IMG/VR virus record: IMGVR_UViG_3300025083_000060
Coordinates: 1 to 50,470 of that record
Strand: one strand, 5' to 3'
DNA length: 50,470 nt
Origin: a virus
Taxonomy: Duplodnaviria; Caudoviricetes
Both the position numbers and the translations under genes were made by a program. Below are positions 17,663-34,946 of this stretch, piece by piece (position 1 is the stretch's first letter; every line of letters begins with the position of its first letter). The notes beneath the pieces are model-generated. The model did not search any database. It worked only from the letters and a program-made list of their open reading frames with translations, and had not been told where the DNA came from.

Positions 17663-18898
17663 CTACGCAGAATACTGCGCTCTAGCTCCATCTAACTCGC
17701 AGGGTATCTTACCATGCCAGCCACCTTTTAACTTGTTCTTAGCCAGTACAAGATAGCGCTGATTGTCTACCTCATCCTCATCCCCTAGCTCTGCCATTGA
17801 AGGGTTCTTAGATATAAGAATCATGAGGTCTGCCTCTGCAGCCTTGCCTGTTTTACTCCCTTCAAGCATAGACTGGTCTACGTTAATCCTATTCTCTGCT
17901 GCTGCAGACAATTGGGACATCCATATAATTGCTGTGTTGTATTGCTTTGCAATGTTACGTGCATGAATAGCCGCATCCTTTAGGTACACGTCTGACTTGT
18001 CACTGGTACGAGGTGCAAACTTATCACCCATGTCAAGTACCACAATGTCAGGCTTGTAGTTTTTAATAGCCGCCTCTACCCATACCATGTCTTTACCCGT
18101 ACTGTCGTACAGATCTATGTTATCTCTAACACGTTGGTATCTTGTCGAAGCTAAAGGAAAGTTATCTTTAACTTCTTCCATAGTCAGGCTGGTAGCAGCA
18201 GTAAGATAGCGAAAAGCTACACGTTCATACGCCTCTTCATTACAAAGAATAAGACAACGTGCACCCTGCTTCGCAAAACCATTAGGCCCTGCAATAAGAG
18301 ATGCATGAAAGCTTGTCTTACCTGTGTTAGGCCGTGCGCCTACAATTAAGAAGTGCCCACCACTAATACCCTCAACCTTACGGTGTAAGCTAGGGATGTT
18401 GAACTTCCACTGAGATTGTTTCTCGTTAGCCTTGAGCAGTGTCTCAATAGATATATCACAGAAATTTAAGTTAAGGCTTGGGGTAAAGTCATCCTCGTAA
18501 TCACTCAGTAGTTTTCTCAGTGGCTCAAGACTTTTCTGTGTACCATTAACATAATCAAAACCTATGTTGGCTACCTCTTCCCCTACCATCTGCTGAAAAA
18601 GTTTAGACAAAACTTCCTTGGCGATAGGCTTAGACATAGGTTCTTCTTTGCGGATCTTGTTAAAGATTTCCTTATATACTGTCTTGTTAGATGTAGTAAG
18701 TGTTGCGTTGGAAGAGAAGAACAAGCCCTCTACTTCCGACACAGATAGATCCTTATCATACTCCTGCATAGCCATCTCTACGGTGTGTTTAATCTTTCTA
18801 ACATCTTTCGTAAAGAGTTTGTCTGGGGTACGGATACCCTTATGTCCCTCATAAAATTCTTTATTCATGAGAGATCTTATGAGTGCTAATTCCATCAT
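17663..18898 (-). CDS. DnaB/gp4-like replicative helicase
   Basis: Walker A GARPNTGKT; VVLD; SQL; AEADL; KNK. Confidence 0.9.
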   Translation of the reverse strand: MMELALIRSLMNKEFYEGHKGIRTPDKLFTKDVRKIKHTVEMAMQEYDKDLSVSEVEGLFFSSNATLTTSNKTVYKEIFNKIRKEEPMSKPIAKEVLSKLFQQMVGEEVANIGFDYVNGTQKSLEPLRKLLSDYEDDFTPSLNLNFCDISIETLLKANEKQSQWKFNIPSLHRKVEGISGGHFLIVGARPNTGKTSFHASLIAGPNGFAKQGARCLILCNEEAYERVAFRYLTAATSLTMEEVKDNFPLASTRYQRVRDNIDLYDSTGKDMVWVEAAIKNYKPDIVVLDMGDKFAPRTSDKSDVYLKDAAIHARNIAKQYNTAIIWMSQLSAAAENRINVDQSMLEGSKTGKAAEADLMILISKNPSMAELGDEDEVDNQRYLVLAKNKLKGGWHGKIPCELDGARAQYSA

Positions 18899-19440
18899 AC
18901 TTTATTGGCCTCGCTTCTTTCTATGGCACGTTTACGTTCTTCATCAGTCATGTCTGATATAGATCTACTCTTTACCTTTTCAATAAGCTCTAATGCATTT
19001 TGCCATGAAAGCTTGAACCATTCTTTAACGTAGTCATTGGACATAGATTTAGCAAGGTCGTGTACATCTGACTCTGCCTTACGTCTGTCACTGAAATGGG
19101 CATACCCTCGTAGGTGAAAGTCTCTGAAGGGACTAGACGTTTGATATGCATTAACCCTATCCTCAACATCAATAGCCATACCAATCTTAACCCAGTCACG
19201 CCATGCAGGATTAGTCAGAGCATATACATAGCCTTCCTTGGTGTTAGAGTACTTACCTAACCCTTCAAAGGCTGCATCATTAAAAGATTTATATCGTCCC
19301 GGCTTATGTAAGTCATGCGTCTGTGGAATATACTTACCGTTGACCCACATACGGCTCTCATTTCTTTTACGCATAGCATCTGGGCTATCCTTGTAATACT
19401 TATCACGGCCTGTCGTATCGTTATGTTCTTTCTTATACAT
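18895..19440 (-). CDS. GIY-YIG superfamily (T5orf172/MUG113-like) protein
   Basis: GYVYALTNPAWRDWVKIGMA...RVNAYQTSSP...E...H...EWF. Confidence 0.8.
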   Translation of the reverse strand: MYKKEHNDTTGRDKYYKDSPDAMRKRNESRMWVNGKYIPQTHDLHKPGRYKSFNDAAFEGLGKYSNTKEGYVYALTNPAWRDWVKIGMAIDVEDRVNAYQTSSPFRDFHLRGYAHFSDRRKAESDVHDLAKSMSNDYVKEWFKLSWQNALELIEKVKSRSISDMTDEERKRAIERSEANKV

Positions 19441-23020: not shown

Positions 23021-23358
23021 TCCATTCTTGTTACATAGTGTCCATTGTCTGTAGGTAATGCTACCATACCATAGGGGTAAAAGTAAACATCACCCTTCTT
23101 GAGTTTGACCTTAGCAATAGGATTAAGGTCATCATCTTCTGGATAGGTGTATGTACCATTAGGTAATACCTTACCCTTGAACTGGTACAGCTTACCGAAT
23201 CCATACGCTTCTGTCATGTGGTCTACAAGATCAAGACCTTCTTCGTCACCGCCATCTTCTACATAGTCGGCAACCCAATGCGGTAATAAACCCAACCACT
23301 CTACGAGTTGATCTTGTGTGTAGTCAGGGTAAGCTTCTGTGTTAAGTAGTAGTCTCAT
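23017..23358 (-). CDS. hypothetical protein
   Basis: 113 aa; coupled to neighbours; YTYPEDDDLNP...YFYPYG...VTRMD. Confidence 0.75.
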   Translation of the reverse strand: MRLLLNTEAYPDYTQDQLVEWLGLLPHWVADYVEDGGDEEGLDLVDHMTEAYGFGKLYQFKGKVLPNGTYTYPEDDDLNPIAKVKLKKGDVYFYPYGMVALPTDNGHYVTRMD

Positions 23359-24128
23359 AGTACATTCTCCATTGTTAATTCTTTACTGTCGGACGGTCCG
23401 TCACCAGAGTTGAACTCATAAACTGCACGAGCAAAGCCACGGGGTGTAGCACTGCGAATGTTCTTAGTCTTAACAGACTTACCACCAAGTTTCAAGTGTT
23501 GTCTGCTGTGCCCTTGCTCTGGCTCTACTGGGTCAGTCCACGGCATAGTGAACCCATTGCCTGTCCAGAGGCATGTCTTCTTAGGGTATGCATCACGAGG
23601 TGCAATGTAGTCAGGCCACAAGGGATGCTCTGCCTCACTGTCAGCGATGTACTTGCCGTACTCATAGGGGTGGAATGAGTAGTTAGGTTTACGCCACAAC
23701 GTAGACAACACACTGACAGGATTCTCTATGAAGTAAGGTACGCCTAGCTCATTGAAGAACTGCGAGCACATCATAGCATAGCTTGCTGCTTTAGTCTGAA
23801 ACTCAGGGTCACGCTTAGCCTTAGCCTTGAAGTGTGGCGCACCTGATACAGCCAAGTCAGTACACACAGGAAACGCCATGCCGAATACAACACTCTCAAA
23901 CTGAAAGTTTACAGCTATCCTGTTGAGAGTGCTTTGATCGTGAAGGTCTGCATGAACATAACGGATCAGACCACCGCCCTCAAAATTATCTATACATATT
24001 TTTTCTGCATCATGCTGTATGTCAAAGGCATAGCAAATATATCCTGCTTCTGCCCACGGCTTGAGTGCCTCACCTGTGTAGTCATATAGGCTTATGACAT
24101 ACTTACCTGCGTTAGGATTCGTCATCAT
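23355..24128 (-). CDS. phage-type DNA cytosine methyltransferase-like protein
   Basis: ISLYDYTG (motif I-like), FPVCTD (catalytic PC-like), IENPV (motif VI), KKTCLW, RSATPRGF; start moved to MMTNP. Confidence 0.75.
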   Translation of the reverse strand: MMTNPNAGKYVISLYDYTGEALKPWAEAGYICYAFDIQHDAEKICIDNFEGGGLIRYVHADLHDQSTLNRIAVNFQFESVVFGMAFPVCTDLAVSGAPHFKAKAKRDPEFQTKAASYAMMCSQFFNELGVPYFIENPVSVLSTLWRKPNYSFHPYEYGKYIADSEAEHPLWPDYIAPRDAYPKKTCLWTGNGFTMPWTDPVEPEQGHSRQHLKLGGKSVKTKNIRSATPRGFARAVYEFNSGDGPSDSKELTMENVL

Positions 24129-24267
24129 CAAAGTTCCCTTCTTCAAATATAACTTTATACCCTGCATCTAATAGTTCATGCGCTCTGTCAAGAGCATTCT
24201 CACGATCAAGAGTCCACATCTTATTATAATAGAAACCATCCTTGCCTATCGTAGCTACGTAGTACAT
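24112..24267 (-). CDS. hypothetical protein, 51 aa (not in ORF track)
   Basis: MYYVATIGKDGFYYNKMWTLDRENAL...DDDES; GAGG RBS. Confidence 0.65.
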   Translation of the reverse strand: MYYVATIGKDGFYYNKMWTLDRENALDRAHELLDAGYKVIFEEGNFDDDES

Positions 24268-24268
24268 C

Positions 24269-24634
24269 TCACGATACCTCTTCAAACATTTCTAAAGCTT
24301 GATTGTGTGTAAGCTTCCACTGCTTGTCACTAGTCAAAGACTTAACTTGCCACGGCATTTTCTTAGCGTTGGTGTTGTACCCTACGAGAGTAACCTTCTG
24401 CCCACCAATCTCAGAGATACGAGTAGTGTCTAACTTGTAGAACTGTGCAAAATGTGTAAGCGCAATCTGCTCTTGTGTATCCGCACCATCAAGCAATACC
24501 TGTACCTTGTATGTAGCTTCACCGCCTGAGTAGGAGCAGTTACCTACCTTGATAGTCACATCGTGTATGCCAGCATTCTCTAATGCTTCCTGCATTGCTT
24601 CACGTATTTGTCTTAGCTTTTGTTTGTCAAACAT
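24269..24634 (-). CDS. hypothetical early protein
   Basis: 121 aa; AAAGGA RBS. Confidence 0.8.
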   Translation of the reverse strand: MFDKQKLRQIREAMQEALENAGIHDVTIKVGNCSYSGGEATYKVQVLLDGADTQEQIALTHFAQFYKLDTTRISEIGGQKVTLVGYNTNAKKMPWQVKSLTSDKQWKLTHNQALEMFEEVS

Positions 24635-24704
24635 AATGTAATCCTTTCAATGAGTTAGTGACGGACGGTCCGACAGTAAAGCCAGACCGCCCTGCTAGGG
24701 AGTG

Positions 24705-24932
24705 CTACCCTGCGAAGTGTTGCAAGCGGCGCTCAGTGTTACGGTTACGCTTGTGCTCAAAGTACACAGTGCGTTTGCCTAAGTGATAGGCAGTCATGCA
24801 ATCGCCTAGCTCACGGCGCAAGCCACGGCTGACCACCTTACGCTTACGTGTCAGGCCCTTGATGCCAGCGAAGTTGAAGCGAAAACCTTTAGTACCATCG
24901 TTAAGTTTTTTGGTTGCGAATAATACGAACAT
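24705..24932 (-). CDS. hypothetical basic early protein
   Basis: 75 aa; AGGAG RBS; R/K-rich. Confidence 0.75.
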   Translation of the reverse strand: MFVLFATKKLNDGTKGFRFNFAGIKGLTRKRKVVSRGLRRELGDCMTAYHLGKRTVYFEHKRNRNTERRLQHFAG

Positions 24933-24933
24933 A

Positions 24934-25071
24934 TCATTTCTCCTGTGTGAGTTCGTTACGGATCTGGGTTAGTAGTTCTTTTAGTTTGGCATCGTTTGCC
25001 ATACGTGTACTTGGCAGTATTTTTTCACACATGTCAAGTACCTTCAAGTTAAGTGCATTAGAAATGCTCAT
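24934..25071 (-). CDS. hypothetical protein, 45 aa (not in ORF track)
   Basis: MSISNALNLKVLDMCEKILP...LTQEK; GGAGG RBS; ATGA overlap. Confidence 0.65.
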   Translation of the reverse strand: MSISNALNLKVLDMCEKILPSTRMANDAKLKELLTQIRNELTQEK

Positions 25072-25349
25072 GCTGTAAGACCTCCGTCAATCACGATAAG
25101 CTTAGGTTTCTTAGCAACAGCGCTGGGCTTTGTCAAGAGGCAGTAGATATCTGCATAGAAAGCAGGGTCGTGATCCTTGAGGTGTAGTGACGGACGGTCC
25201 GACAGTACATCCCACCACAGCATGTCGTATTCTGTAGACAACATGTCGTATATGTTAGATGCATTCTCTTCACTGCGACATGCAGCGACAAGGCAGGTAT
25301 CTGCCTCATCGTAATCCATAACGCATACATAGTGCATGTTTGGTTTCAT
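25068..25349 (-). CDS. hypothetical early protein
   Basis: 93 aa; AAAGGA RBS. Confidence 0.75.
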   Translation of the reverse strand: MKPNMHYVCVMDYDEADTCLVAACRSEENASNIYDMLSTEYDMLWWDVLSDRPSLHLKDHDPAFYADIYCLLTKPSAVAKKPKLIVIDGGLTA

Positions 25350-25369
25350 TAAGTAATATCCTTTCGTTG

Positions 25370-25984
25370 TTATGTCATTACTACAGCATCAACATGATAG
25401 CGTGACACTGCATCACCAGTAGGCAGGGACTTGTTCATACCACCACGATCAGCAACAAAGTTGCACCATGTGTCCCACCAGTATTCGGAACCCTTGCGGC
25501 GGCATAGCTTGACGTACTCACGTATCTTTTTGAGACGTACTTCTTGCGATGCTTTCTTGTTGATACGCAAGGCTGACTCACTCAACCCTAACGCCCTGAC
25601 ATTGTGTCTGTCAAGACATGCTACTTGAAAGCCTAGCATCTGACCAATGAAGCCAGCCTTGACCATACCAATGCTAGGTATACGCATAAACAGATCTACC
25701 ACAGCTTGTGCACCATCAATGGTGTCACATCCAGCAGTCTCACGTATGTTAAGCATGAGTGTGTGCAACTCTACCTTGTGCTCTTGTGCATAGGTAATGC
25801 CTTGAGCCTTAGTACTGCTGACCCACTTGGACATGATGCCATGCAGCTTGATAGACTTGCGTTGCTCTATCACACGAGACAACGGCATGTTGATCGTGCA
25901 TAAGGTGAACTCAATCACGTCATACAATCCATCAGGGGATTGCAATGCGTGTTGTACGATTTCTGTGCAGTCACGTTGGTACAT
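25370..25984 (-). CDS. helix-hairpin-helix DNA glycosylase-like (Ogg-type) protein
   Basis: LFMRIPSIGMVKAGF...VACLDRHNVR resembles HhH plus catalytic Asp of Ogg-type glycosylases. Confidence 0.65.
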   Translation of the reverse strand: MYQRDCTEIVQHALQSPDGLYDVIEFTLCTINMPLSRVIEQRKSIKLHGIMSKWVSSTKAQGITYAQEHKVELHTLMLNIRETAGCDTIDGAQAVVDLFMRIPSIGMVKAGFIGQMLGFQVACLDRHNVRALGLSESALRINKKASQEVRLKKIREYVKLCRRKGSEYWWDTWCNFVADRGGMNKSLPTGDAVSRYHVDAVVMT

Positions 25985-26027
25985 AGGGAAGCACTCCTGT
26001 TGTTATGTCGGATCGTCCGACAGTAAG

Positions 26028-26444
26028 TTAAGTCGTTGATAAGTAACGTATTTTAGGTTTGATGTCTGTATCAACCACCTTAGATAAGCATACCATATCT
26101 GATTTGTCAATAGGTTCCAGAGTTTTGCTATCAACAAAGCTTGTGAATTTGTACGGGTTGTACGTTGCCTTGCCATGTAAGCGCCAAGCTGGACCCATCA
26201 ATGGGTCACTATCATCTCGCTTGCTGTAGCCACTGACCTGTATGAAATCACCAAGCGTACCACGCACAAAGGCATGCACATTTTTCTTGCCCTCACGTAG
26301 TACACGCTTACGTCCAGACTGACGCACCACAAATTGCGCATCATCTATCCACACTTCATCAGCGTGAAAGAGTACACGCCCTGTCTTAGTATTACGGACA
26401 GAGAATGTATGCTTGTGCAGGTTCCAGTAAACTTCAACTCGCAT
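26028..26444 (-). CDS. conserved phage hypothetical protein
   Basis: VYWNLHK...FSV...FVVRQSGRKRVLREGKKNVHAFVRG...YNPYK; a pattern I recognise from phage hypotheticals. Confidence 0.8.
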   Translation of the reverse strand: MRVEVYWNLHKHTFSVRNTKTGRVLFHADEVWIDDAQFVVRQSGRKRVLREGKKNVHAFVRGTLGDFIQVSGYSKRDDSDPLMGPAWRLHGKATYNPYKFTSFVDSKTLEPIDKSDMVCLSKVVDTDIKPKIRYLSTT

Positions 26445-26457
26445 GGTAGTCTCCCAT

Positions 26458-26916
26458 TTATGCAGATTGTTTTAGTGACGGACGGTCCGACACAACACCA
26501 TTACATACTAGGGATGAGCGCCATCCGTTAAGTTTCAATTCTATGTCAAGCTCCTGCCATCCAAAGGACAAAACCACGAAGGCTCTACGTAATTGTAGAC
26601 ACAGCACGATGTCACCCACCGACATACTAGGGGAGGGCCTGATGGTCGTGCGCCTAAGCTTGCCACTGCCGTAGCCATTGCACTCATCAAAGATCCACTC
26701 AAGTACGTCATCCATGTCATGACTAGTCTGCGCTGTCATCACACCCATATGTAAGAAAGATGTCGGCTCATAGAAATCTTTAGCTAAGGCTTTCTGTATT
26801 ACATCCACGCCATTTCCTGCAGGTAAACTACGCAAGGACACATACATATCTATGTCATCCTGCCTAATGATTTCACTCTTGGGTTGATAGACTAAGAACG
26901 ATTGCGATGCGGTCAT
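26458..26916 (-). CDS. hypothetical protein, possible YodL-like domain
   Basis: LEWIFDECN...SMSVGDIV...FVVLSFGW resembles the YodL-type signature. Confidence 0.55.
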   Translation of the reverse strand: MTASQSFLVYQPKSEIIRQDDIDMYVSLRSLPAGNGVDVIQKALAKDFYEPTSFLHMGVMTAQTSHDMDDVLEWIFDECNGYGSGKLRRTTIRPSPSMSVGDIVLCLQLRRAFVVLSFGWQELDIELKLNGWRSSLVCNGVVSDRPSLKQSA

Positions 26917-26920
26917 GGTA

Positions 26921-27100
26921 TTACTCCTCTTGCGGGTTAAAATAGGGCATTGACAAGTTATCCATGAGGATATCTTTCACTTCTCCACCAGTCATGCCAA
27001 GCATTCCAGCATATGTCAAGATAGAAATGTTAGGGTTGAGATCATAGAAGTCACGTATCTCATCATCAGTCCACTCATGTATGTATTTTAGATCAGGCAT
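26921..27100 (-). CDS. hypothetical protein, 59 aa
   Basis: start re-assigned to MPDLKY after AAAAGGAATCATGAC RBS. Confidence 0.75.
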   Translation of the reverse strand: MPDLKYIHEWTDDEIRDFYDLNPNISILTYAGMLGMTGGEVKDILMDNLSMPYFNPQEE

Positions 27101-27373
27101 GTCATGATTCCTTTTCAGTGATTTCATTTTGTTAGGTCCAACGTTGGACTTAAGTTTCAATTGAGCAGGTAAAAATACACTTGGGTTGTAGACTGTCGGC
27201 CTATCTCCACACCATTGATTATGTATAGTGAAAGTTAAATATAACTTCCAAGTGTACTTATATCTGCCTAACAAACAGGCCAGTATTTGCTAAGGCTGCT
27301 GGGCCACGCCATTTTACGAAGGCTTTTGAAGTGTCGGACGGTCCGACAGTAATGCCAAACCGCCCCATGATTG

Positions 27374-27625
27374 TCAATAGATTTCGTCTAGCTCTTCATC
27401 AAAGCCGAACTCTTCGTCCCACTCTTCGGGTGTCATACCTGACATCAAGAACTCACGCTGTTCTGCTGACAGGTCAGGCATAACATTCTGTATTAGATCA
27501 CCTGATGCAAGCCAGTACTCAATCACACCTTGAGTGGTAGGCAAGAGCATGTTGTTTATCTTGCCAGTCATCATAGACTTTTTGTGCACCAAAACTTTAT
27601 TCTCTGCTATATGTTCTATCTGCAT
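27374..27625 (-). CDS. hypothetical protein, 83 aa
   Basis: start re-assigned to MQIEH after the same AAAAGGAATCATGAC RBS; LIQNVMPDLSAEQREFLMSGMTPEEW. Confidence 0.8.
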   Translation of the reverse strand: MQIEHIAENKVLVHKKSMMTGKINNMLLPTTQGVIEYWLASGDLIQNVMPDLSAEQREFLMSGMTPEEWDEEFGFDEELDEIY

Positions 27626-27695
27626 GTCATGATTCCTTTTTACTTGGTTGTTTTGAAGTTGAAGTGTCGGACGATCCGACAGTAGAAGTCCCATA

Positions 27696-27724
27696 ACTGT
27701 CAGCCATCCATGCTAGATTGTCAA
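27696..27724 (-). promoter_or_regulatory. candidate early sigma70 promoter just upstream of a palindrome copy
   Basis: TTGACA-N17-GACAGT on minus strand; palindrome at 27665-27681 immediately downstream. Confidence 0.5.
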
Positions 27725-27832
27725 GGGGTTTGGGATGTTTGCGCTGCTGCATATTACACAGCCACCTGCTACGCCACACCTTATCAGCACGGCGAGCGTA
27801 CCTGTCACGTCTGCTCACACCTAACATGTACG

Positions 27833-27961
27833 TCACCCCCCATGCATGGCATAGAGCATGCCACAAAAGAACATCATACCTGACGTGCTGACGTAGGTAA
27901 GAAAGTAAGCAAAGTTTTGAAGGCGAGTAGGTCTAAGAATGTATTTTGTACGATGGCGCAT
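27833..27961 (-). CDS. small hydrophobic protein, 42 aa (not in ORF track)
   Basis: MRHRTKYILRPTRLQNFAYFLTYVSTSGMMFFCGMLYAMHGG; same ACAAGGAATTGACCC leader as 28037-28276. Confidence 0.6.
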   Translation of the reverse strand: MRHRTKYILRPTRLQNFAYFLTYVSTSGMMFFCGMLYAMHGG

Positions 27962-28036
27962 GGGTCAATTCCTTGTGTGTGTGTTTGAAGTGTCGGACGG
28001 TCCGACAGTAAAGCCAGACCGTTGATACTGGTATCA

Positions 28037-28276
28037 TTACCAAGCTTCTGATTGGATCTCTTTGCGATGGTCATCATAAAGCTTTACAGCTTTGTGCATA
28101 CGCTTGAGGGCGGTTTCATACTTGCGACAACCTTGTATTTCTTGAAGTATTTCTTTGAGGGTCCAACATTCAACCAGCACATCCCAACCGTCTTCTTCGT
28201 AATGCGCCTTAGCGTGATCCTGAATTTGTGTGGCAAAGTAAAGCGGGACATTAAATGTTTTTTCTAGATCTGTCAT
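28037..28276 (-). CDS. hypothetical early protein
   Basis: 79 aa; HAKAHYEEDGWDVLVECW; strong RBS. Confidence 0.8.
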   Translation of the reverse strand: MTDLEKTFNVPLYFATQIQDHAKAHYEEDGWDVLVECWTLKEILQEIQGCRKYETALKRMHKAVKLYDDHRKEIQSEAW

Positions 28277-28346
28277 TGGGTCAATTCCTTGTATGTATGT
28301 GAGAGAGAGTGATGCGCCCCGCTGTGATGCAGGGCGCTTGACTGTG

Positions 28347-28934
28347 TTAGCCTACGATTTCAGCGTGTAGGGCCTTGAGGAAAGCGCTGGTGTTCAACCC
28401 GTTGCTTTCGAGGGCGGCTTTTACGAATGTCGCAAGCTCCGCTTCAGTCTGAAATTGCTTGGTGTCGGACGGTCCGTCAGTAGCAGCCTCTGGCTTGGCT
28501 TGGGCTTTTCCTGCAGATGTATTACCTGCAGACTTAGGCGCTTTCGGCTCCGCTGGCTTGCTTGCCTTGGTGATCCGCTTACGGATGGCGCTCATCCCTA
28601 GACCGTCAAGTTTCCCGTCAGTGTTTAAGCGCTGCACAAGCTCCCAGTTTTCCGCAATCTTTTTGCAATCATTGTAATCTTGCCGACTAATAGTCGTATG
28701 CTGAGCCATTGCTTGGCCGAAAAGCTTGTCAGATTTGTACAAGGGACGAAGCTGGATCACAAGCAATCCGATTTCTTTGTAGCAATCCAATTGCTGCTCT
28801 TGCAAGAGCCACATACGATCATGAACCGCTTCCATCTGAGCAAAGGCGGCGCTTGCTGTGAACGTCTGACCGTTGTGTGTTACCTTGCCGTCCAAGTGTA
28901 CTTTTGCGTTTGTGTTTGTTTTTGCGTTTGTCAT
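28347..28934 (-). CDS. first early gene, hypothetical protein (195 aa)
   Basis: start re-assigned to MTNAKT after AAAAGGAA RBS; GC-richer codons than rest of window. Confidence 0.8.
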   Translation of the reverse strand: MTNAKTNTNAKVHLDGKVTHNGQTFTASAAFAQMEAVHDRMWLLQEQQLDCYKEIGLLVIQLRPLYKSDKLFGQAMAQHTTISRQDYNDCKKIAENWELVQRLNTDGKLDGLGMSAIRKRITKASKPAEPKAPKSAGNTSAGKAQAKPEAATDGPSDTKQFQTEAELATFVKAALESNGLNTSAFLKALHAEIVG

Positions 28935-28984
28935 CGAAGTATTCCTTTTTTGCTGTGGCCGGTGTTGGCCGTTTCGATGCAATC

Positions 28985-29013
28985 AATCTGGCCGATGGTC
29001 GAGGGAATGTCAA
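28985..29013 (-). promoter_or_regulatory. candidate first early sigma70 promoter
   Basis: TTGACA-N17-CAGATT on minus strand, ~50 nt before the first gene start. Confidence 0.6.
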
Positions 29014-29102
29014 CGGCTTTTGGTGCGCATTATGCGCAAGGAAAAGGAAGCAGTGTCGGACGGTCCGACAGTAGGGTAGGGTAAAAGCAGAACATCCGGT
29101 GA

Positions 29103-29117
29103 GAACGAATCAGGAAC
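29103..29117. promoter_or_regulatory. candidate alphaproteobacterial LexA box
   Basis: GAAC-gaatcag-GAAC (GAAC-N7-GAAC) in the divergent control region. Confidence 0.4.
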
Positions 29118-29542
29118 AGCCTCGTGCGTGATCATGTGTGTGATCATATGTGCATGCATGTGTGTTTGTGCATAAGCGATGCATGATCGCATCACGCTGC
29201 AGATGTGCGCATAGCAGGCCTATATGTGCGGCTTGCAGATACACAATCGGTAGAAAAAGCGTGTAAAAACAAGCGTTTAGCCCTATGCACATGCGCAGAA
29301 TGCACACACACGGCCCCACATACACCCCCCTGCGTGGGCCACCCCCCCGGTGTACGTACGTATATACATACTCTGCAACAGAACTGGATTTTACTTTTCA
29401 TGTACGAGCACTTACACACAACTATACCGTGTAAACAGTAATGTTATACTATAACAATGCTTAAAGCTGTGCATAAAGTTGTAACATAGATCACGTTTTG
29501 TTACAATTGTTACAAATGCATCACTTTTTGGCGAAACAAGGA

Positions 29543-29570
29543 TTGACAATGGGGGTGCTTTGTGTAAAAC
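29543..29570 (+). promoter_or_regulatory. candidate late-arm sigma70 promoter
   Basis: TTGACA-N16-TAAAAC. Confidence 0.55.
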
Positions 29571-29579
29571 TACGTAGTA

Positions 29580-29850
29580 GTAGTAGGTAAGTTAAACTTA
29601 AAAGTTAAACTCTTTAGAATACAACTAATAATACTTAACTTAAATAACTAAACTATATACAGTTACACTTATATCATTGGACTTAGGAAGAGTTAGACAT
29701 TAAAGTTAAACTTTAATGTTAGACTTACAAGTTGACAGCTTTATATTTGTATGATAGTATACTTATATGAGTGGTATTGATAATTATAACTATAAATATA
29801 CCACTATACTTTAACTTAACGTGTGACTTTAAAGTTTAACTATCACTAAT
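29580..29850. repeat. AT-rich region with AAGTTAAACT repeats (possible origin or packaging/terminal region)
   Basis: AAGTTAAACT at 29589, 29602, 29703; inverted copy at 29832. Confidence 0.65.
29732..29760 (+). promoter_or_regulatory. candidate late-arm sigma70 promoter
   Basis: TTGACA-N17-TAGTAT. Confidence 0.6.
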
Positions 29851-29886
29851 TTTTTAGTCGCACGTAATTTCCCTTGTAATTACCCC

Positions 29887-31226: not shown

Positions 31227-31748
31227 ATGCGAAGACAACAACCTACAACAGGTATGCCTAAAGGCCGTGCTGGTAAACTTACCCCTGCTCCGGGCGCAGG
31301 TAAACCAAAGCAAGCTGTGGGCGTAGGTAAACTCAAACCCCCAAAGGGTATGCCAGCACCTGCACCGGGTCGAGGTAGAGGCAGAGGTAAACCATTGCCA
31401 GCACCACTACCATCACCGACTCCGGGTCGTGGTAGAGGCGGTAGACGCCCTACTCCTATGCCAGCACCTGCGCCGGGTAGAGGCCAAGGCAGAGGTAAAC
31501 CATTACCAGCACCTGCGCCGGGTAGAGGTAGAGTTAAACGTCCTATGCCAGTACAGGCAGGTCAAGCACAACAAAAAAAGTTGACCCCTGTACAGTTGGC
31601 CCGTAAAAGGCAGATGGCTGCTAAAAGAAGACCTGCTCAATTAGCAAGAGCGCAAGCTCAACAAAAGAGAGCTTTAAACAGAGCAAACCGTGTAGCACAA
31701 AGAAATAATAGGTCTACCACCCCCACTCAGGCAGCACGTAGGCGGTAA
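31227..31748 (+). CDS. Pro/Gly/Arg-rich low-complexity basic protein
   Basis: repeated MPAPAPGRGRG; DNA duplication 31350-31405 / 31458-31513; GAGG RBS. Confidence 0.75.
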   Translation: MRRQQPTTGMPKGRAGKLTPAPGAGKPKQAVGVGKLKPPKGMPAPAPGRGRGRGKPLPAPLPSPTPGRGRGGRRPTPMPAPAPGRGQGRGKPLPAPAPGRGRVKRPMPVQAGQAQQKKLTPVQLARKRQMAAKRRPAQLARAQAQQKRALNRANRVAQRNNRSTTPTQAARRR

Positions 31749-32690: not shown

Positions 32691-33023
32691 ATGCCTAAAA
32701 CAGAAACATCTCGTGCTGATCAAAAGGTAAAGCAGTTACGAAAGCGTATATCAAATTTAGCACCTGTACATAAGCGTAAATTATTAAAAGAAAACACTGT
32801 CAGTAATGTTATTGAAGGTTTAAGGGCTACAGGTACTGCAGCTAAATCTGCTTGGAACTCTAAAAAGGTAAGTGCTCTTGAGGCTAAGATAGTTAAATTA
32901 GAAGCGGCTAAAGAAGAAGCTCGCCAGTTGAAAGAAACAAAAGCTTTTAACAAGGGTAAACCTTTTGCGGAATACCACGGTAAATCTGCTAAGCTATTAA
33001 AAAAAGCTAATGCAAAAAAATAA
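32691..33023 (+). CDS. basic hypothetical protein
   Basis: 110 aa; K-rich. Confidence 0.7.
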   Translation: MPKTETSRADQKVKQLRKRISNLAPVHKRKLLKENTVSNVIEGLRATGTAAKSAWNSKKVSALEAKIVKLEAAKEEARQLKETKAFNKGKPFAEYHGKSAKLLKKANAKK

Positions 33024-33045: not shown

Positions 33046-33216
33046 ATGAATAAGAAAATGAATAAAGGAATGGCCGCATTAAAAAAAGAAGCACCAGCAG
33101 TAGCAGCAAAGATGGGCTACAAGTATGGTGGCATGGCTAAGAAAAAATCGGGTTATAACAAAGGTGGTATGGCTAACTGCGGTGCTTCTATGAAAGCTAC
33201 ACAGGGGAATAAATAA
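33046..33216 (+). CDS. small basic protein with two YxxGGM motifs, 56 aa (not in ORF track)
   Basis: MNKKMNKGMAALKKEAPAVAAKMGYKYGGMAKKKSGYNKGGMANCGASMKATQGNK; AGGAG RBS; TAATG coupling. Confidence 0.8.
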   Translation: MNKKMNKGMAALKKEAPAVAAKMGYKYGGMAKKKSGYNKGGMANCGASMKATQGNK

Positions 33217-33800
33217 TGGCTAGTTATAAAGATTATAAAAGTATCTCTGCTGCACGAAAAGCAGGATCTATGTACTACACAGATAAGAATGGTAAGAAAG
33301 CTTTAGCTGTAACCAAAGAAACACTAGATGCTTGGAAAAAGAAAAACAAGGGTAAGTTTAAAGGTTCTGCTTTAACTGCTTGGGCTAATGCTAAAGGTAA
33401 GAACATTGGTGCCTCTGCTGGTACAGCCCCACCTAAGAAACCTTCTGTTCCCGGTGCAAAGCGTCCACCTAAACGTCCTGTAGATCCACGTTCACAGCGT
33501 CCTAAACAGCCTAAAGGTGCACCAACTCTTAGAGAAAGAAACCCTGTAGAGACAGATTATCTTCTTCCGGGTACAGATAAAACTCTTAAAGATGTCTTTA
33601 CTAAAGCAGAGATTGATGCAGCTTCTAAACGTGCACGAAAGCAGTTGGGTACGGATGCTAAGCCTTACACCAAACCTGTTCCGGGTAAAGCTATTTACGA
33701 TGCTATTAAAGAACGCACAAGTGTTTCTGAAATTAAAGCACGGGCAAAGCGGGAATCAGAGAAGCGGTCACGTTATAAGCGTGGTGCGAGTGCTGGATAA
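33216..33800 (+). CDS. Lys/Pro-rich hypothetical protein
   Basis: 194-aa ORF in operon. Confidence 0.75.
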   Translation: MASYKDYKSISAARKAGSMYYTDKNGKKALAVTKETLDAWKKKNKGKFKGSALTAWANAKGKNIGASAGTAPPKKPSVPGAKRPPKRPVDPRSQRPKQPKGAPTLRERNPVETDYLLPGTDKTLKDVFTKAEIDAASKRARKQLGTDAKPYTKPVPGKAIYDAIKERTSVSEIKARAKRESEKRSRYKRGASAG

Positions 33801-34252: not shown

Positions 34253-34393
34253 ATGTTTAAGAATATCTTAAAGAAGTTTCAAGAAAATCAACAACGAAGA
34301 GCAGACTATTGGATACTCATGAATCTGAGTGACAAAGAACTGCATGATATGGGGATCAGTAGAGGTGAAATCAGGCAAAAAGTCTACGGTTAA
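34253..34393 (+). CDS. DUF1127 (YjiS-like) small protein, 46 aa (not in ORF track)
   Basis: MFKNILKKFQENQQRRADYWILMNLSDKELHDMGISRGEIRQKVYG; LSDxELxDxGISRxEI signature; AGGAG RBS. Confidence 0.88.
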   Translation: MFKNILKKFQENQQRRADYWILMNLSDKELHDMGISRGEIRQKVYG

Positions 34394-34550
34394 TGCAGCG
34401 GGTAATTATACTAAGCCTAGTATGCGTAAGCGCCTCGTTGCTTCCGTCAAAGCTGGCGGGAAAGGTGGAGCACCCGGACAATGGAGCGCCCGCAAAGCAC
34501 AGATGGTTGCAAAGCAATATAAAGCTAAAGGTGGAGGATACAAGTCGTGA
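34365..34550 (+). CDS. small basic hypothetical protein
   Basis: probable GTG start; NYTKPSMRK...GQWSARKAQ...YKAKGGGYKS. Confidence 0.75.
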   Translation: MKSGKKSTVNAAGNYTKPSMRKRLVASVKAGGKGGAPGQWSARKAQMVAKQYKAKGGGYKS

Positions 34551-34699
34551 AAGTAGATGCACCTAAAGGTTATCATTGGATGAAGCAGAAAGATGGTGGC
34601 CTAAAGCTAATGAAACATAAAGATAAGTTTGTACCTCATAAGGGTGCATCTCTTACTGCTAACTTTCCTGTACAAAAGAAACACGATGCCAAAAAGTAA
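34547..34699 (+). CDS. small basic hypothetical protein, 50 aa (not in ORF track)
   Basis: GTG start after GGAGG; MKVDAPKGYHWMKQ...HDAKK. Confidence 0.7.
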   Translation: MKVDAPKGYHWMKQKDGGLKLMKHKDKFVPHKGASLTANFPVQKKHDAKK

Positions 34700-34946
34700 A
34701 AGTCAAAAGAGCCTGACCAGTTGGACCAAGCAGAAGTGGAGAACCAAAAGTGGTAAGCCATCGACGCAGGGTCCAAAGGCTACAGGTGAAAGGTATTTAC
34801 CTGAGAAGGCTATTAAGTCTCTTAGTGCTTCTGAGTATGCCGCTACATCACGAGCAAAACGAAAAGGCACTAAGGCGGGTAAGCAGTTTGTGGCTCAGCC
34901 TAAAAAAGTTAGAGCCAAAGTAAAACCGCATAGGAAGATAACATGA
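34686..34946 (+). CDS. basic hypothetical protein
   Basis: start re-assigned to MPKSKSQ; WTKQKWRTKSGK...GERYLP. Confidence 0.75.
   Translation: MPKSKSQKSLTSWTKQKWRTKSGKPSTQGPKATGERYLPEKAIKSLSASEYAATSRAKRKGTKAGKQFVAQPKKVRAKVKPHRKIT

Follow-up and report, generated by a model that had tools for sequence, protein, structure and literature searches.

Ten dispersed palindromes in the early arm of an HMO-2011-type phage and their candidate binder, the first early gene product

The genome of an HMO-2011-type podovirus, IMG/VR record IMGVR_UViG_3300025083_000060 (50,470 nucleotides; the window below is the whole of this record, which is rated 91% complete), carries exactly ten copies of a 17-bp palindrome, TG(T/A)CGGA-NNN-TCCG(A/T)CA. 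All ten lie between positions 23387 and 29070, the first ~5.7 kb of the leftward arm of early genes, where the array ends just ahead of the integrase and replication genes; the other 44.8 kb contain none. The ten sites probably constitute a stoperator-like distributed operator array bound by an autoregulated early regulator, the product of the gene at the head of this arm (gene X and protein X below). That X binds the sites, and that the effect is repression rather than activation, we infer from the comparisons that follow.

The window was scanned with TGTCGGACGGTCCGACA at up to two mismatches and, in a second scan, with the degenerate TGWCGGANNNTCCGWCA at up to one. Both scans return the same ten starts (Table 1) and nothing further in the 50470 bases, in agreement with the original prediction, which had located ten copies at these places; its statement that they are confined to the early region is true of all existing sequence. 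Not one of 100 dinucleotide-preserving shuffles of the window holds any palindrome match. Three copies are perfect palindromes, five have TGAC replacing TGTC in a single arm only, and two deviate in the central three bases only; the copy at 26006 is, as had been noted, the reverse complement of that at 27665. The flanks reported for most copies are found on the plus strand, AG on the left in 7/10 and GTA on the right in 8/10, and an alignment around the ten copies reveals no extended similarity past ~4 nt per side. Read in the direction of the genes, most copies are located 20-45 nt 5' of a start codon having a ribosome-binding site.

Some copies are translated, and the peptides read from them in the original prediction are correct: DGPSD is in frame in the open reading frames (ORFs) 23355-24167 and 28347-28982, and SDRP in 25068-25349 and 26458-26916. 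Two further ORFs, 27374-27694 and 27874-28077, also encode SDRP and appear to be artifacts, either false N-terminal extensions or reading frames called across 5' leaders; the PHROG match of the first spans residues 22-101 only and the second has no ribosome-binding site. The placement of the sites supports the earlier argument for selection at the DNA level rather than on the peptide. The copies at 23387 and 26476, two of the four originally described in frame, are the final few codons of ORFs that just run across them; in the relative L017 the homologous site is 3' of the methyltransferase stop codon and hence intergenic; and, X aside, only the copy at 25188 is mid-ORF, in an otherwise unsupported frame of 93 amino acids (aa). 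The arms are conserved across diverged phages, being retained though the flanking DNA and proteins have diverged to 35-50% identity, which suggests, as first proposed, an array of sequence-specific binding sites.

Comparison with relatives provides the link between the sites and X. The exact motif occurs in 23 viral contigs, some of them near-identical relatives and others HMO-2011-type contigs with ~65% TerL identity; the latter have several copies each, often directly against the ribosome-binding site, and the carriers of both kinds all have an X homolog. Among 47 viral contigs fetched for comparison, X is at the head of the early arm in every one. Forty-six of them carry a single palindrome class each, none mixed, and the remaining one, which ends inside X, has no palindrome. 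At least five site classes can be told apart. Class I, TG(T/A)CGGA-N3-TCCG(A/T)CA, is that of the window and occurs in 17 contigs whose X proteins are 35-99% identical; class II, TGTCGAA-N2-TTCGACA, occurs in 25 contigs; class III, TAGTCCG-ACAG-CGGACTA, is present in five copies in HMO-2011; class IV, TTGACnGAATTCnGTCAA, occurs in 4 contigs; and class V, GTCCAA-N2-TTGGAC, is found in CRP-1 and CRP-345. The layout is the same in every class, with one copy 5' of X, one in the stretch of X that encodes the linker or just past the stop codon, and others before downstream genes. HMO-2011 itself conforms: its gp74 is a distant X (profile E about 1e-7), with one copy ahead of gp74, one just behind it and three more downstream. 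A cognate palindrome at the same place within the X gene is found in class I-b (L076-L079 and L081), in class II, where it reads TVExST, and in CRP-1 and CRP-345. Eleven small contigs with the motif (L005-8, L012, L014, L015, L018, L021, L025 and L026) were rejected as array carriers and treated as one chance occurrence; they hold one copy with identical flanks and none has X, and L007, the one inspected, has large ORFs resembling a head-gene module.

The site class follows X and not the phage backbone. In TerL, the identity to the window is higher for class II phages (70-74%) than for class I-c phages (64-68%). In X the class II phages are the more distant (25-42% identity in partial matches spanning 55-144 residues, compared with 35-41% over 180-198 residues). 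The reversed order indicates that the site class tracks the X clade. A panel of 13 cultured relatives, picked by TerL, gives the same picture. With an array defined as at least three copies of one palindrome in the early arm, X is present in 3/13 and an array in exactly those three, while none of the ten without X has one; shuffled panel sequences gave an array in 0/260 trials. The absence of X was verified on the whole records of the X-less relatives (0/10, with the positive control at 3/3). Furthermore, no early-arm protein cluster other than X is common to the 23 genomes compared, which span all four classes in this comparison. The discordance between TerL and X together with the cultured panel argue that the link of array to X exceeds shared descent, as far as sequence comparison can tell.

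The original prediction held that no repressor was recognizable in the window and listed the 28347-28934 product only for pull-down; this product, X, is the best candidate for the binder. A disordered Lys/Ala/Pro linker (130-158) joins its helical N-terminal domain (residues ~25-128) to a C-terminal domain of two helices (164-194). The AlphaFold2 model from a 42-row alignment (pLDDT, the predicted local distance difference test score, 76.9) shows a short beta-hairpin, a 39-residue helix and four short helices, followed by the linker and the C-terminal two-helix unit. Two-copy complex prediction scored 0.66 against 0.02 for the best control, a mark attained by 20/30 solved homomers and 1/23 single chains; at least 74% of contacts agree among the runs, with partner pLDDT of at least 68. 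X is thus predicted to be a symmetric dimer whose symmetric contacts follow the long helix and link the C-terminal units, and a palindromic site fits a protein of this predicted symmetry. An exhaustive fold search (VIA) of 48,161 chains places DNA-binding domains among the best 50. For the window X there are seven such rows, all aligned to residues ~47-134, and they include SopB (Z 4.9 and 4.6), KorB (4.7 and 4.4), P1 ParB (3.8), ParB-parS (3.6) and VirB (3.4). A second model, of a class II member, gives six rows, namely KorB (3.9 and 3.7), SopB (3.6 twice), VirB (3.5) and P1 ParB (3.4). Over these rows Z ranges from 3.4 to 4.9, with root-mean-square deviations of 2.9-4.5 A over 74-82 residues. 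That KorB, SopB and ParB recur in two independent models is suggestive, which cannot be said of the Z values by themselves. Conservation within X is most class-specific in helix 114-125 (class I, GVSAIRKR; class II, SASYLRQ; class IV, NSVNVLRK), a putative recognition helix. Homologs of X occur in 87 database clusters, none of them named, and tblastn of the window X against cultured phages finds nothing. A protein Atlas returns unnamed viral clusters, with DUF3102 in 27% of the members of the cluster at rank 29, a lead only.

Several observations weigh against X as the regulator of an operator array. X has no Pfam or PHROGs match and, as single sequence or as profile, no PDB sequence match that would give the family a name; Foldseek against the PDB finds nothing at E <= 0.001, and rows of unrelated helical proteins score as well as the weak fold matches. 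The 47 contigs were fetched via the X alignment, i.e., selected through X; arrays in the cultured panel were sought in the first 7-12 kb only; and the panel represents only two or three independent X lineages. The co-variation of site class and X is confounded by the shared ancestry of the whole early arm. A neighboring gene of 87 aa also tracks X, though it is not the array partner, as CRP-207 carries this gene and no array. The flanks of eight of the ten window sites have the same orientation (TAC-site-CT, read on the coding strand), something that a purely symmetric operator does not need. A TTGACA hexamer is found up to 100 nt upstream of 14% of 99 sites in 22 genomes versus 6% of random positions; most sites are not at recognizable promoters, and roadblock repression at these is an assumption. 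Lastly, a scan of 185,579 species genomes by one peptide pattern found no X homolog, and lysogens that carry the module are undocumented.

On the interpretation that we favor, X would be the first early product made, and its dimers would bind the palindromes as double-stranded DNA. The protein would combine a KorB/SopB-like helical DNA-binding core with a flexible linker and a small second dimerization domain. One dimer would occupy each 17-bp site through two 7-bp half-sites, TG(T/A)CGGA, leaving the central 3 bp unread. Feedback on X itself would be expected, because sites are present upstream of P_X (the presumed X promoter), in or just after X, and in most leaders of the small early genes. 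Along the initial ~6 kb of the early arm, occupancy would block or occlude host RNA polymerase, the sites acting as operators at a few promoters and as roadblocks elsewhere, as in mycobacteriophage stoperators or KorB operators. The site classes, at least five in number, would reflect co-evolving specificities of regulator and operator, and the use of the repeated sites as short homologies for cassette deletion or exchange would be a side effect. A role in lytic timing and one in lysogenic immunity are both compatible with this scheme; the phage has an integrase, but so do X-less relatives. Activation instead of repression is conceivable: the first site is by our own count ~80 nt 5' of the presumed start, and 10/20 class II relatives have a sigma-54-type motif ahead of X.

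A bolder version, which we find doubtful but worth stating, makes X the founder of an undescribed, CTPase-less family of ParB/KorB-like bridging proteins. Through its two dimer interfaces, connected by the flexible linker, X would hold the scattered palindromes together and fold the accessory early arm into a silenced complex, the site specificities would amount to mutually blind groups of immunity or incompatibility among HMO-2011-type phages that co-infect a host, and the sites, marked by the protein, would be the joints at which cassettes are swapped. The known proteins of this type differ from X in their N-terminal part: ahead of the helical core X has a short beta-hairpin only in place of an N-terminal ParB/Srx CTPase domain, and none of 42 X family members has a ParBc or KorB Pfam hit at E <= 1.

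The main rival to a DNA site is that the palindromes function as hairpins in early transcripts, in 5' leaders or between cistrons, where they would stabilize or process mRNA or serve as translational operators, possibly bound by X. Their position agrees with this, as most copies are 0-45 nt 5' of a ribosome-binding site and class I-c copies abut it directly (site-GTAGGAGAA-N-ATG); so does the RNA folding of perfect copies (-9.1 kcal/mol, with seven base pairs closing a 3-nt loop). However, five of the ten window copies are changed in one arm, and the two such variants that were folded (-5.4 and -6.5 kcal/mol) do not outperform shuffled sequences (z -0.19 and -0.14). The 79 class I sites include 44 perfect ones, 24 with the T/A change in a single arm and one with it in both, compared with ~2.5 double variants expected under independence by our own arithmetic; of 86 class II sites, 38 are changed in one arm and none in both. 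One-arm changes are frequent and compensatory doubles are not enriched, from which it follows that base identity is maintained and pairing is not. Across relatives the arms are conserved and the center and flanks variable, with T or A at arm position 3. The flanks, TAC-site-CTA or the complement, occur in either orientation to transcription both between and within relatives, the first copy is 5' of the conserved -35 box of P_X and so may be untranscribed, and the window has no match to known RNA families (Rfam). Taken together, the lack of maintained pairing, the flank orientation, the copy upstream of the -35 box and the absence of an Rfam match lead us to prefer double-stranded DNA as the recognized form and to regard a hairpin function as unlikely.

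The sites are also places of recombination. Relatives more than 95% identical show three indels. L074 is without 856 bp exactly between the copies at 27332 and 26476, and the palindrome at its junction is a hybrid: its left flank comes from one of these copies, its variant right arm and right flank from the second. A 394-bp segment difference in L073 and L075 begins 6 nt past the copy at 27332, and the third indel, of 139 bp (24126-24264), is away from any site. In addition, the genes near the gp82-like gene are ordered differently in L076, where a palindrome marks the boundary. Coincidence of breakpoints with sites, which the original prediction had put forward as a test, is therefore observed for two of three indels, which break in a palindrome or within 6 nt of one; judged from these alignments, the sites are joints for early cassette change. 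The tyrosine recombinase that the same prediction connected with them finds no support, as arrays are missing from seven cultured relatives that lack X and carry an annotated integrase. The core site of a tyrosine recombinase has inverted arms around a spacer or overlap of 6-8 bp, unlike the 7-bp arms around a 3-bp center seen here.

The elements proposed for comparison, the PeSLs (promoter early stem-loops) of T4-type phages, are composite promoter/terminator motifs at indel points, according to the available text of PMC4122927 and PMC2839356. The palindromes resemble them as repeated short elements that border small early genes at indels or swaps. The proposal of PeSL-like shuffling stands as regards cassette joints, but finds no support as regards the integrase and does not extend to the promoter-plus-terminator make-up: none of the ten palindromes is flagged as terminator-like, none is followed by the T-run of an intrinsic terminator, and a -35 box is near only a minority. 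The palindromes are moreover tied to X, whereas PeSLs are without a known dedicated binding protein. If the palindromes were mainly recombination or module-boundary elements of this kind, kept for shuffling accessory genes and with no dedicated binder, the L074 deletion with its hybrid palindrome, the 394-bp indel and the L076 gene order would be accounted for. But such a role cannot explain identical 7-bp arms amid unalignable flanks, the strict link to X or the conserved copy within X, the sites are not promoter-plus-terminator composites, and one indel in three is not at a site; we consider it distinctly unlikely. A target-site duplication by a mobile element, considered on account of the TAC...CTA flanks, was dropped because the same flanks occur at all copies and the copies are syntenic across relatives.

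We give equally little credence to X as a replication initiator or segregation protein, with the palindromes as origin or centromere-like sites. There are precedents: the O protein of phage lambda has binding sites inside the linker-coding part of its own gene, and ParB/SopB proteins act on scattered centromere sites, as in N15. The cognate site in the linker, conserved in several classes, and the fold likeness to partition-type DNA-binding domains would suit such a function. On the other hand, the sites are 0.3-1.3 kb apart and not clustered by an AT-rich region, the 55 window proteins scanned against Pfam include no ParA- or IncC-type ATPase, no co-repressor and no ParB N-terminal domain, the ten X-less relatives share the primase/helicase/PolA set and have no arrays, and a plasmid prophage would be unexpected in a phage with an integrase.

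Binding by a host protein (a global regulator, nucleoid protein or defense factor), with the sites as decoys or as a means of hijacking it, is very improbable. Class II sites do fit TGT-N10-ACA, and a sigma-54-type motif accompanies X in 10/20 class II relatives, with the L097 palindrome ~108 nt before it, in the place of an enhancer site. Yet the exact class I site is not repeated as an array in the 185,579 species genomes, at least five classes exist in a set of phages some of which were isolated on related Roseobacter hosts, and arrays are missing from X-less phages of those hosts. The exact 17-mer is present in 45 stretches of these genomes (596 Gb), all but one of them single, where our own estimate for chance is ~69; a host repeat of the REP (repetitive extragenic palindromic) kind was rejected on these numbers. 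The only bacterial stretch with two exact copies, 26 nt apart, is at 1790-1832 of L038, a contig of a Streptomyces metagenome-assembled genome.

That the palindromes are hairpin promoters used by an RNA polymerase carried in the virion, like those of phage N4, is scarcely credible: the size (7-bp stem and 3-nt loop, where N4 promoters have a 5-7 bp stem and a 3-nt loop) and the restriction to the early region fit, but no RNA polymerase is recognized among the 55 proteins scanned, site orientation to the genes is not fixed in relatives, and host-type TTGACA is enriched on the coding strand of the same region. A virion-module protein of 1181 aa, examined as a possible virion RNA polymerase, was set aside, as no PDB sequence match supports it. 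Methyltransferase targets were rejected outright, since CRP-2, CRP-603, CRP-207 and CRP-9 have methylases and no arrays.

A regulator with a dispersed operator array is a known kind of system. The repressor of phiC31 binds ~18 copies of a 17-bp inverted repeat, intergenic in the early region; phiC31 differs as a temperate Streptomyces siphovirus whose repressor gene is elsewhere and has several isoforms. Closest are the stoperators of Cluster A mycobacteriophages (L5 gp71, Bxb1, TipsytheTRex). As far as the accessible parts of PMC6550527 and PMC9283540 describe them, many copies of a short site are spread through transcription units, mostly off promoters, some overlap gene ends, and the consensus tracks the divergence of the repressor. 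The window resembles them in its ten dispersed copies within transcription units, most off promoters, and in a site consensus that co-varies with the candidate regulator (five classes, one X clade each, discordant with TerL). The differences are substantial. Stoperators are 13-bp asymmetric sites in a single orientation, up to ~30 of them genome-wide, bound by a monomeric two-domain repressor of the gp71 family; here the sites are palindromes of 16-18 bp with varying flank orientation, within ~6 kb, in a phage with no known lysogen, and X is a predicted dimer of an unrelated family. KorB of plasmid RK2, likewise among the closest analogs, acts on palindromic OB operators at many places, promoter-proximal and distant (PMC11790492, in the portion available). 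By analogy, X would share with it the repetition of a palindromic operator at many places and the regulation of its own operon, and the modeled DNA-binding core of X has a weak structural likeness to that of KorB. KorB has an N-terminal CTPase/clamp and the partners KorA, TrbA and IncC, none of which is recognizable for X, and X is about half its size with no sequence similarity.

HMO-2011-type phages are among the most abundant marine viruses, as stated in the available text of PMC9038755. In the main comparative paper on this group the strings 'palindrom', 'repressor' and 'promoter' have no occurrence, although supplementary files may hold annotations, and literature searches on HMO-2011 gave nothing on such a motif in the titles and opening lines of abstracts. 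That paper does not describe the X family, the palindromic sites, the location of a site within the gene for the regulator itself or the presence of such a system in this abundant marine group. Were our reading correct, it would provide a first handle on how HMO-2011-type phages time or silence their early genes, allow uncultured genomes to be sorted into specificity groups by sequence alone, supply a natural set of at least five orthogonal protein-site pairs, and tie gene regulation to cassette shuffling in a hypervariable early region.

Table 1 The ten palindromes, gene X and its presumed promoter in the window, in the order in which the early arm is read
Feature	Position	Strand	Context
Palindrome copy 1, perfect	29054..29070		40 nt 5' of the P_X TTGACA, coding (minus) orientation
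TTGACA, -35 of presumed X promoter (P_X)	29008..29013	minus	weak -10, CAGATT after 17 nt
Gene X, 195 aa	28347..28934	minus	first recognizable early-arm gene; candidate palindrome binder
Palindrome copy 2	28463..28479		within linker-coding part of X, read as TDGPSDT
Palindrome copy 3, perfect	27991..28007		~30 nt 5' of ATG of 42-aa ORF 27833-27961
Palindrome copy 4	27665..27681		starts 43 nt past first base of TTGACA (27724-27719)
Palindrome copy 5, perfect	27332..27348		directly abuts TTGACA-N17-CATTAC (27377-27349), classical operator position
Palindrome copy 6	26476..26492		last codons of 26458-26916; 31 nt 5' of L5-gp82-like gene
Palindrome copy 7	26006..26022		intergenic, 21 nt 5' of ATG of 25370-25984
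Palindrome copy 8	25188..25204		middle of 93-aa ORF 25068-25349, read as SDRPS
Palindrome copy 9	24659..24675		intergenic, 24 nt 5' of ATG of 24269-24634
Palindrome copy 10	23387..23403		C-terminal tail of DNA methyltransferase ORF 23355-24167; 28 nt 5' of next ATG

The spacing between the first palindrome and the TTGACA ahead of X is 30-41 nt in 8/8 class I relatives compared, and the hexamer is conserved at the same relative place despite otherwise diverged DNA; P_X is presumably an active promoter. On the coding (minus) strand TTGACA occurs 12 times in 24025-29013 (7 as CTTGACA) compared with 11 times in the remaining ~45 kb, which suggests many host-type early promoters in this segment; in relatives the enrichment is about twofold only. 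Copy 4 is ~40 nt 5' of the likely true start (ATG 27625) of a phrog_20898 gene. The ORF that holds copy 8 has a good ribosome-binding site, and its homologs are in close relatives only. The PHROG match of the methyltransferase ORF stops at residue 256/270, ahead of copy 10, the last before the integrase and replication genes.

The arms of the genome are arranged with minus-strand genes from ~9.7 to 29.0 kb and plus-strand lysis and structural genes beyond a gap. Weak DNA matches connect the window to HMO-2011 and CRP-207, and it encodes a family-A DNA polymerase with a DnaJ-type CXXC insert, a DnaB-like helicase, ThyX, ribonucleotide reductase (RNR) and endonuclease I, in addition to the tyrosine integrase, TerL and an SU10-type portal. 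The divider of the two arms (29071-29886) is largely non-coding. Its right half, 29420-29886, is AT-rich and has no convincing ORF, and contains repeated AAGTTAAAC words and paired TTGTAACA/TGTTACAA motifs; it could hold an origin, the genome ends or switch operators.

Further elements surround X. A 13-bp palindrome, GCGCATAATGCGC (29025-29037), is located between copy 1 of the 17-bp palindrome and the P_X -35 box. Class I relatives have conserved an almost identical block, TTCCTTGCGCATTATGC, but in them it is 5' of the palindrome. This second palindrome may be an operator for another factor. In class II the sigma-54-type motif, TGGCAY-N5-TTGCW (-24/-12), is 140-147 nt 5' of the X start in ten relatives (L090, L095, L097, L100, L101, L103, L105, L106, L107 and L109) and at about -351 to -354 in L113 and L114; it is absent upstream of X in the eight class I and two class IV loci examined. 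In L097 three ~20-nt direct repeats (CCGTTCGTCRG...) are located between the upstream palindrome and this motif. A sigma-54-dependent phage early promoter would be unusual. The presumed 5' leaders of X in class II (e.g., L097, L100 and L110) also have a conserved inverted repeat of ~70 nt, TTTATAG...CCCCTCACTGAAAGTGAAGGGG...CTTGTTTATAAAC, ~20-110 nt 5' of the X start, which could be an RNA structure.

A ribosome-binding module, AAAAGGAATCATGAYATG, is repeated before several early genes (~27625-27650, inside 26921-27274, and at ~2230 of L011) and yields a spurious common peptide, KRNHDM; it seems to serve as a second joint for recombination. Five very basic, low-complexity proteins rich in Lys, Arg, Pro and Gly (31227-31748, 32691-33023, 33216-33800, 34329-34550 and 34629-34946), with for example PAPAPGRGRG repeats and no family match, are encoded in a run between the lysis genes and the terminase; they may condense DNA or be internal proteins of the virion. 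Inserted between the helicase and small genes is a gene (18895-19440) whose product has a T5orf172/MUG113 (GIY-YIG-like) domain; it may be a homing-endonuclease-like element.

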